From Candidatus Lokiarchaeum ossiferum (lineage in GTDB: Archaea; Asgardarchaeota; Lokiarchaeia; Sigyniarchaeales; Promethearchaeaceae), in NCBI GenBank assembly GCA_025839675.1, contig CP104013.1:120001-152000 (forward strand): DNA of 32,000 bases. Direction: 5' to 3'. The position numbers were made by a program, and so were the translations under genes. A model generated the notes under the pieces. It saw only the letters and a list, made by a program, of their open reading frames with translations, had not been told where the DNA came from and searched no databases. Positions 2,921 through 3,138 of the stretch are shown piece by piece. Positions within the stretch are counted from its first letter, which is position 1. Each line of letters begins with the position of its first letter.

Positions 2921-2990
2921 GTTTCATTTTAAGTTTTTTCAACGTAACCTTTTTATTTTCAAGTTTCCTTTTTAATTTTGATCAGATTTA

Positions 2991-3138
2991 GGAGTCTATC
3001 ACCATGTTTACACGAACAAACTCAGATATTTCACATGATGTTTTGGTTACTTTTTGTAGTGTTGTAAACGTGGTTGTGGTGCAAGTTTAATAGACTCCAT
3101 AAAAAGTCAACCTCGTTTATTCTGTTCAACTTTTATGG
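2991..3138 (+). promoter_or_regulatory. structured leader region upstream of valS (nested inverted repeats around a Val-rich mini-ORF)
   Basis: Three pairings can be drawn:
- 2991-2999 GGAGTCTAT with 3090-3098 ATAGACTCC
- 3002-3012 CCATGTTTACA with 3063-3073 TGTAAACGTGG (11 bp, one G-U)
- 3097-3104 CCATAAAA with 3131-3138 TTTTATGG (covers the valS ATG)

Stems of this size are individually expected by chance in AT-rich DNA. Confidence 0.35.
3004..3090 (+). CDS. 28-codon Val-rich mini-ORF (candidate leader peptide)
   Basis: The ATG at 3004 is preceded by AGGAG (2990-2994). The translation is MFTRTNSDISHDVLVTFCSVVNVVVVQV*, with 9 Val of 28 codons, including 4 consecutive Val. The stop lies 44 nt before the valS ATG. 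Confidence 0.4.
   Translation: MFTRTNSDISHDVLVTFCSVVNVVVVQV

Follow-up and report, generated by a model that had tools for sequence, protein, structure and literature searches.

Ribosome-mediated attenuation by leader peptides rich in cognate codons is a textbook mechanism of gene control in bacteria. The pheM leader of pheST in E. coli represents the form in which an aminoacyl-tRNA synthetase operon is controlled through an intrinsic terminator, whereas the leaders of ermC, cat and cmlA represent translational attenuation, triggered by an antibiotic-bound ribosome. In Corynebacterium a conserved 'ncRNA' ahead of ilvBNC, the ilvB-II motif, was found to be in fact an upstream open reading frame (uORF; PMC10272879, PMC11857589), and the polycysteine short ORFs of mycobacteria have been described as amino-acid-responsive attenuators of downstream genes (bioRxiv 10.1101/834739). 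Here we describe a short, valine-codon-rich ORF directly ahead of valS, the gene for valyl-tRNA synthetase (ValRS), in a stretch of 32,000 nucleotides (nt) of the genome of Candidatus Lokiarchaeum ossiferum (contig CP104013.1; the whole stretch is called the window below). We consider it somewhat more probable than a coin toss that this valS leader is a ribosome-mediated translational attenuator that senses Val-tRNA and works without a transcription terminator. Our literature searches on the question, which included one review on archaeal transcription-translation coupling, yielded neither an archaeal leader-peptide attenuator nor a leader for an archaeal aminoacyl-tRNA synthetase, in agreement with the preliminary description of this DNA, whose author was aware of none.

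The leader ORF (Table 1) is situated in the gap of 214 nt (2921-3134) between the gene for a HAD-family hydrolase and valS. Its ATG at 3004 follows the sequence AGGAG (2990-2994) after a spacer of 9 nt, and 44 nt separate its stop codon from the ATG at 3135 that is annotated as the valS start. All these positions had been given in the preliminary description, together with the count of nine valine codons out of 28, and they are exact in the sequence; the identification of the downstream gene as valS was correct as well. Apart from the Val block at the 3' end, valine codons are found at 3040 and 3046. Among the 242 ATG-initiated ORFs of 15-60 amino acids in the six frames of the window, none but the leader ORF exceeds 4 Val in any stretch of 10 residues; the leader ORF reaches 7. 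At the valine frequency of the window (5.0%, codons of window genes), the binomial probability of at least 9 Val in 28 codons is 5e-6 and that of at least 7 in 10 is 8e-8. Moreover, the enrichment is cognate to the product of the very next gene, which speaks for a sensor. As in known leader-peptide attenuators, a short ORF with its own start signals precedes the gene in question, and we propose that it senses the supply of Val-tRNA through the Val block. The use of rare codons was considered too and rejected: GTG accounts for 3 of the 9 Val codons in the leader and for 0 of 28 in valS, but for 18% in the genes of the window, and is unremarkable.

A protein search returned just eight ValRS clusters with an identity above 50% to the enzyme of the window, and their DNA was retrieved. 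The set of loci with a leader, assembled from NCBI, ENA and Logan assemblies via protein look-ups, comprises seven distinct sequences from five lineages, and the corresponding ValRS form one clade in a neighbour-joining tree. Two sub-families can be distinguished. Sub-family A is made up of the window, a second L. ossiferum genome (L001, with a ValRS 98% identical to that of the window) and an ENA contig (L002, 73%). Sub-family B contributes four further lineages (L005, L006, L009 and L010-12, the last from three metagenome-assembled genomes), whose ValRS are 53-56% identical to that of the window. The L002 locus is syntenic and has the same 28-codon leader ORF (MFTQTNLAISYDVLVRTCDVVNMVVVRV); the members of sub-family B carry a leader ORF of 30 codons in the equivalent place. 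Common to all seven leaders are a Shine-Dalgarno sequence (SD) 9-11 nt upstream, the start ATGTTTA, a frame of 28-30 codons, the position of the stop codon and a 3'-terminal run of Val. In addition, the leader start ATGTTTAC is nearly invariant, and GGAGTCTATC (2991-3000) is unchanged in six of the seven; L009 has GGTGTCTATC instead, in which GGAG has become GGTG and which is still SD-like. Outside this clade the picture is different: the sister clade of ValRS (L003, L007, L008) has neither the leader ORF nor an N-terminal extension of the enzyme, and no Val-rich uORF was seen ahead of the bacterial-type valS genes of Asgard archaea (L013-L017), for which L013, L016 and L017 were inspected.

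The alignment of valS upstream regions, suggested earlier as a check, thus turned out in favour of the mini-ORF, which is kept in seven sequences from five lineages as codons rather than as nucleotides or as a peptide. More specifically, the orthologues of the Val block read VVNMVVVQV or VVNMVVVRV in sub-family A, VEVSVVVVVNM in L005, L010 and L006, and VDVSVVVVVVQ in L009, so that the uninterrupted run of Val is 3-4 residues long in sub-family A and 5-6 in sub-family B. Within the block GTT, GTA, GTG and GTC are interchanged and the variation is almost solely at third positions. The N-terminal two-thirds of the peptide are unconstrained. Of the codons that changed between L005 and L009, 18 did so non-synonymously and 4 synonymously; between the window and L002 these numbers are 9 and 4. 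Enrichment for cognate codons that persists while the remainder of the peptide drifts is a hallmark of leader-peptide attenuators. Judged from the sequences, the selection is that on the regulatory codons of a leader peptide, and not that on a functional protein or on a purely structural RNA; the start signals and the 3' Val run are then the only selected content of the ORF. The non-coding spacer together with the valS start is conserved to an even higher degree. The nucleotide identity between the window and L002 is 0.95 in the untranslated spacer with the valS start and 0.87 over the leader (2963-3147), versus 0.76-0.78 in the flanking coding sequence (valS 0.76) and 0.67 in the 5' intergenic part (2921-2962); the conservation climbs from about position 2963 onward.

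The segment that begins at the leader stop codon and includes CUCC (3095-3098) looks like the 3' end of 16S rRNA in archaea and is, by its sequence, a mimic of the anti-SD. We refer to it as the pivot; its equivalent in sub-family B is GAUAGAYCCUCCAAA. Three pairings had been drawn around the mini-ORF in the preliminary description and all are right base for base. The first consists of 9 Watson-Crick pairs between 2991-2999 and 3090-3098 and connects the SD of the leader ORF (SD1) with the pivot. The third, 8 bp between 3097-3104 and 3131-3138, can be extended to 12 bp plus a 1-nt bulge (3095-3107 with 3129-3140) and connects the same pivot with the valS start. According to RNAduplex the two are nearly equal in strength in the window: -14.9 kcal/mol for SD1 with the pivot (0 of 300 shuffles as good) and -14.5 kcal/mol for CUCCAUAAAAAGU (3095-3107) with ACUUUUAUGGAG (3129-3140; shuffle p ~0.01). 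Across the leaders the former ranges from -13 to -16 kcal/mol in six and amounts to -8.8 in L009, and the latter ranges from -10.6 to -15.3 kcal/mol. Near-equal alternative partners of the pivot are present in six of the seven leaders, from both sub-families, with a shuffle p <= 0.02 in most cases. As components of a device, the first and the third stem have held up, as alternative partners of one pivot in both sub-families. The second stem, between the leader AUG and the Val block, reaches a high strength in sub-family A only (-16.2 kcal/mol in the window, p = 0.006; -14.6 to -16.6 throughout, p < 0.01). Its 8-bp core, AUGUUUAC:GUAA[AG][CU][GA]U, is nevertheless paired in all seven sequences, with 4 one-sided, wobble-compatible changes and none that break it.

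A further helix is suggested by RNAalifold and by the minimum free energy structure, in which a G-U-rich segment (3115-3125) forms a second candidate partner of the valS start (3135-3145, GGAGUGGAU). It is kept in the seven sequences, with 95% of the cells paired and one-sided changes only. Over all consensus helices 97% of the cells are paired, compared with 38-53% when the partners are slid. The fold of the leader as a whole is modestly better than that of shuffled sequences (z = -2.1 for 2985-3145, z = -1.1 for 2921-3160); for the free RNA a long hairpin is predicted, the apical part of which drifts freely. Nearly all helices have one arm that does not vary, which accounts for the lack of strict covariation. 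The evidence for the helices is thus one of conservation, not of covariation, as far as an alignment of seven leaders can tell.

We propose the following scheme. The time that the ribosome spends on the Val run would report the supply of Val-tRNA(Val). The pivot would pair with the SD and start of the leader, by which the leader is closed into a long hairpin, or alternatively with GGAGTGGATC at the valS start, by which valS initiation is masked. A ribosome that halts on the final Val codons or on the stop codon would cover or redirect the pivot, and with scarce Val-tRNA the valS initiation region would be exposed for longer and more ValRS would be made. The presence of the ORF, the Val run, the SD, the pivot and its alternative pairings under selection is clear from the sequence comparison; translation of the ORF, the sensing of pauses, control at the level of translation and a stall that means ON are what we infer from it. 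Partition-function folding with a masked ribosome footprint was performed to fix the direction of the switch. With the footprint on the Val run masked, the pivot of sub-family A is predicted to shift from the valS start (0.68-0.91) to SD1 (0.59-0.83), and the probability that the GGAG of valS is unpaired rises 3-10 fold, from 0.02-0.04 to 0.09-0.29. We tentatively favour more ValRS upon stalling because of homeostasis and of this folding result, although the two sub-families disagree in the masked folding. By analogy, the mechanism is most likely translational attenuation of the ermC/cat type combined with the amino-acid sensing of the pheM, ilv and trp leaders. The logic of leader-peptide attenuators, invoked in the preliminary description, is hence retained in the conserved, SD-led ORF of cognate codons; the sequence, being free of a terminator, does not suggest attenuation of transcription as in pheM, ilv and trp, and masking of an SD as in ermC and cat fits better.

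The site of valS initiation deserves a separate discussion. The ATG at 3135, taken as the start in the preliminary description and in GenBank (907 aa), has become doubtful since L009, in contigs from three samples, has a TAG at that position and lacks any canonical start in frame ahead of the HMGH motif. RefSeq places the start at TTG 3198 (886 aa), which a 1-nt deletion puts out of frame in L010-12. A leaderless valS transcript starting from TTG 3198 was rejected as the general solution: L002 has an ATG at this site, but in L005 and L009 a start codon is missing from it. Probably, then, the valS start is mis-annotated. By comparison, GGAGTGGATC (3137-3146) is identical in all seven leaders, even though it spans three would-be synonymous sites. 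It matches 8 of the 10 positions of GGAGGTGATC, which we take to be the full archaeal SD, while the 3' end of the L. ossiferum 16S rRNA may differ. The distance between its GGAG and an ATT or ATC, the sole candidate start in the ValRS frame that all seven leaders share, is 8-9 nt, a geometry equal to that of SD1 and the leader ATG. We suggest, as a lead rather than a result, that GGAGTGGATC is the SD of valS and that initiation may occur at a non-AUG codon; in that case, masking of the SD would affect valS with particular strength. The more specific version of our proposal, in which the dwell time on the Val run toggles the anti-SD mimic between the SD of the leader and that of valS and valS starts at AUU/AUC 8-9 nt past the invariant GGAGUGGAUC, is tentative and, taken as a whole, rather doubtful. 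A second exact copy of GGAGTGGATC is located at 24840-24849 inside a coding region (...FTGVDHIDLD...); about 0.06 copies are expected in the window, and this one is probably coincidental. The ValRS of the leader-bearing clade have a variable N-terminal extension of ~20-45 residues that is rich in Lys, Glu, Asn and Gln and that other Asgard ValRS (~866 aa) do not have. In the window it corresponds to the region 3135-3197, with a run of eleven A at 3175-3185.

Several observations weigh against attenuation at the level of translation. The family stays at five lineages: pattern scans of genome and JGI metagenome collections gave no further copies, neither with GTCTATC..ATGTTTA..GGAGTGGATC in genome and metagenome contigs nor with GGAGTGGATCNNAATYAGNNNNCWAAAG in metagenome contigs. 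A search of genome contigs for related loci by ValRS protein gave no confirmed locus, and a profile built from the first 250 aa of the ValRS of this clade matched just fragments of other ValRS clades. The start codon of valS is itself uncertain. An SD-like motif is located no more than 25 nt from the start in only 4 of the 20 long ORFs of the window (spacing 8-12 nt) and, according to a review, SDs are not common in a Lokiarchaeote (PMC7531240); SD-led initiation is therefore uncommon in L. ossiferum. An A/T-rich box, ATAAAAAG (3099-3106, sub-family A), might in principle act as the promoter of a transcript beginning past the leader. Within sub-family B, the helix between leader AUG and Val block is weak (-9.5 to -11 kcal/mol, p 0.1-0.24) and the folding with a ribosome mask is flat or opposite in tendency. 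Finally, the covariation that had been suggested as a check of the stems did not materialize: no pair has a compensatory double change in the seven leaders, and all 11 changes are one-sided and wobble-compatible.

Translation of the leader could also control premature termination of transcription, in that a gap between polymerase and ribosome lets aCPSF1/FttA or a weak U-tract act, or in that coupling of the two prevents termination. Factor-dependent termination via aCPSF1/FttA is part of archaeal biology. The conserved ORF with its Val run and the runs of T3-T4 between leader and valS would suit this mechanism, and transcription-translation coupling does occur in archaea (PMC8116511). However, an intrinsic terminator (hairpin plus U tract) is not found in 2850-3300, and the spacer of none of the seven leaders has a run of T5 or longer. 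Moreover, conservation is highest in elements that resemble an SD or an anti-SD, which speaks for the binding of ribosomes, and we judge a control of termination to be unlikely.

Similarly, the leader ORF might be a constitutive device for coupling or ribosome loading, where finishing ribosomes unwind structure and are delivered to, or reinitiate at, the SD-poor valS start, with a Val run that is incidental, e.g. forced by pairing. The short distance (44-55 nt) from the leader stop to the valS start agrees with this, as do the pivot, which begins at the stop codon, and the predicted accessibility of the valS start, which a ribosome at the stop increases in sub-family A. It is also true that the GUAAACRUG part of the Val block is needed for pairing with the leader AUG. 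Yet this pairing accounts for just 3 codons of the Val block; the other 4-6 Val codons differ freely at their third position but encode Val in all lineages, which is unexpected under a constraint of RNA pairing, and the coincidence of a Val run with valS would be left unexplained. A purely constitutive role is thus distinctly unlikely in our opinion.

The leader might instead act as an operator through its RNA structure, with ValRS or some other protein as the ligand, as in thrS autoregulation, or with a tRNA as in a T-box; the ORF would then be a by-product. This would account for a non-coding spacer and a GGAGTGGATC that are conserved above the coding sequence, for the long hairpin in the free RNA and for UUUACAC (3007-3013), which on reading the sequence resembles the anticodon loop of tRNA-Val(UAC). 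But that heptamer is not conserved in L005, L006 and L010 (AUGUUUAUU), the apex of the hairpin drifts, and the Val block varies with a periodicity of 3 nt, with ATG, frame and stop all kept. Furthermore, in 2850-3300 there is no Rfam match to a T-box even at E <= 10, no Rfam family corresponds to the leader, and ARAGORN finds no tRNA-like element in it. We regard an operator of this kind as improbable.

Quite improbable is a small functional protein with a hydrophobic, Val-rich tail that merely happens to adjoin valS. A conserved SD-led ORF in which M-F at positions 1-2, one Cys and a Val-rich C-terminus are kept is what one would expect of it, but the excess of non-synonymous changes reported above leaves most of the peptide without amino-acid constraint, length and composition do not give a membrane helix, and the ORF is found solely ahead of one clade of valS. 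Chance, i.e. an AT-rich intergenic region that happens to hold a V-rich ORF and stems, was a caveat of the preliminary description and gains something from the frequency of 8-11 bp stems in AT-rich DNA and from the unremarkable fold of the whole region (z = -1.1), but is effectively refuted by the composition statistics, the conservation in five lineages with synonymous turnover and a spacer conserved above the coding sequence.

Table 1. Features of the valS locus in the window and of the related loci (positions refer to the window unless preceded by a locus number)
Feature	Position	Strand	Remarks
Leader ORF, 28 codons, MFTRTNSDISHDVLVTFCSVVNVVVVQV then stop	3004-3090	+	ATG start; unannotated, no gene called there in L. 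ossiferum
Val block GTT GTA AAC GTG GTT GTG GTG CAA GTT	3061-3087	+	7 of the 9 final sense codons code for Val
SD1, AGGAGTCTATC	2990-3000	+	Shine-Dalgarno of the leader ORF and 5' arm of the leader-closing helix
5' arm of the leader AUG:Val-block helix	3002-3012	+	partner 3063-3073; 11 bp, one G-U
Pivot / anti-SD mimic, TAATAGACTCCATAAAAAGT	3088-3107	+	leader stop codon and CUCC (3095-3098)
G-U-rich second candidate partner of the valS start, GTTTATTCTGT	3115-3125	+	from minimum free energy folding and RNAalifold
valS initiation region, ACTTTTATGGAGTGGATC	3129-3146	+	contains ATG 3135 and GGAGTGGATC (3137-3146)
ATT, candidate start	3150-3152	+	9 nt past GGAG; ATT/ATC common to 7/7 leaders
valS, archaeal-type valyl-tRNA synthetase	3135-5858	+	NCBIfam PRK13208, 807 bits vs cut-off of 738
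Spans compared for the start site	3135-3200; L009:1713-1730; L010:1495-1515		
Leader peptides of sub-family B			L005 MFIDRTLEIFQHGTCAPSQVEVSVVVVVNM; L010-12 MFIDRTLKIFRHGTCAPSQVEVSVVVVVNM; L006 MFINRTLMIFQHGACASSQVEVSVVVVVNM; L009 MFTQNSIPDLIHLGNFCSSVDVSVVVVVVQ
Bacterial-type valS upstream in sub-family B	L005:1-2673; L009:1-1401; L010-L012:1-1174		
HAD-family hydrolase gene, upstream of valS	2039-2920	+	same direction as valS; family assignment
T6 tract	2934-2939	+	14 nt past the stop of the HAD-hydrolase gene
TATA-like box, A/T-rich, TTTTTATTTT	2950-2959	+	sequence position
TATA-like box, A/T-rich, TTTTTAATTTT	2969-2979	+	sequence position

The window has a G+C content of ~33%, and its ValRS has the same sequence as UYP43822.1 from Ca. 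L. ossiferum B-35, a cultured Asgard archaeon. Transcription in archaea can be terminated at oligo-T tracts, and by analogy the T6 tract behind the HAD-hydrolase gene is a possible terminator of that gene, in which case leader and valS would form a separate transcript. The two A/T-rich boxes that follow are candidates for its promoter, although these positions are guesses from the sequence. The leader ORF would accordingly lie inside the valS transcript. The window contains no tRNA genes and no Rfam match at the gathering score. Elsewhere in it, on the minus strand, an ORF of 668 aa (9609-11615) has a homologue in L. ossiferum with weak Pfam matches to the Arf and Roc small GTPases, and given these matches it is typical of the eukaryotic-signature proteins of Asgard archaea.

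A different arrangement of synthetase genes is found in sub-family B, where a bacterial-type valS (Val_tRNA-synt_C domain, ~920 aa) directly precedes the leader with its archaeal-type valS. The bacterial-type ValRS is widespread in Asgard archaea, and no L. ossiferum homologue is among its top 120 matches. From the tandem valS genes in sub-family B and from the composition of these top 120 matches it follows that the leader-controlled valS may be one of two ValRS genes in some genomes and the sole one in Lokiarchaeum. Two tRNA-Ala sequences were noted ahead of valS genes outside the leader-bearing clade: a gene for tRNA-Ala(CGC) at L013:4339-4413, just upstream of a bacterial-type valS, and a tRNA-Ala-like sequence, apparently interrupted by an intron and without a call by ARAGORN, at L003:2681-2790, upstream of a leaderless archaeal-type valS.

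Cis-regulatory RNA is poorly known in archaea in general. If our proposal is correct, archaea, with their eukaryote-like ribosomes and initiation factors, use the speed of uORF translation as a metabolic sensor, and Asgard archaea regulate a core enzyme of translation in cis. It would also mean that masking of an SD can serve as a read-out in a genome where SDs are rare, and that unannotated small ORFs in archaeal leaders merit a systematic search, e.g. ahead of ileS, leuS and the ilv genes. In addition, the leader would offer a short, mutable element to probe transcription-translation coupling and the selection of start codons in the cultured L. ossiferum.

A comparison with the known systems makes clear in what respects the valS leader would be familiar and in what respects it would be new. 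It differs from the thrS-type operator, a tRNA mimic whose conserved hairpin resembles an anticodon arm and overlaps with the ribosome-binding site, in that ARAGORN detects no tRNA-like element and that the sole anticodon-like heptamer, UUUACAC, is not conserved. With the valS T-box of Firmicutes it would share the physiological task, i.e. the tuning of valS expression to the charging of tRNA-Val, but the T-box, recognised by a Stem I with a specifier loop and by its antiterminator sequence, binds the uncharged tRNA directly and does not need translation, and the valS leader has no T-box match. To our knowledge, T-boxes are not known in archaea. Also comparable are the leaderless polycysteine ORFs of mycobacteria (bioRxiv 10.1101/834739), which likewise contain a run of codons for a single amino acid in a very short upstream ORF and fall outside the classical terminator model; these are bacterial and precede Cys-related operons rather than an aminoacyl-tRNA synthetase. 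The ilv leaders (ilvGMEDA and ilvBN in Enterobacteria, the ilvBNC uORF/ilvB-II motif in Corynebacterium) have runs of Val codons, together with Ile and Leu, in a conserved uORF whose peptide is otherwise unconstrained. They regulate bacterial biosynthetic operons via terminator and antiterminator hairpins, whereas the valS leader is Val-only and stands ahead of a synthetase.

Two of the known systems each provide one half of the proposed mechanism. As in ermC, cat and cmlA, the SD or start of the regulated gene would be masked by a segment beside the leader ORF and unmasked by a paused ribosome, without the need for a terminator; the trigger would be the decoding of cognate codons, unlike the antibiotic-bound ribosome and specific nascent peptide of those systems. 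As in pheM-pheST of E. coli, a short leader ORF is rich in codons cognate to the synthetase that follows, its 3' end overlaps with alternative pairings, and how fast the cognate charged tRNA allows decoding to proceed is the presumed input. The read-out of the bacterial pheM is an intrinsic terminator, however, whereas the leader of the Asgard archaeon is terminator-free and has SD/anti-SD pairings. By its sequence, the valS leader thus suggests that a known principle of attenuation is used in a new domain, the archaea, with a different read-out.

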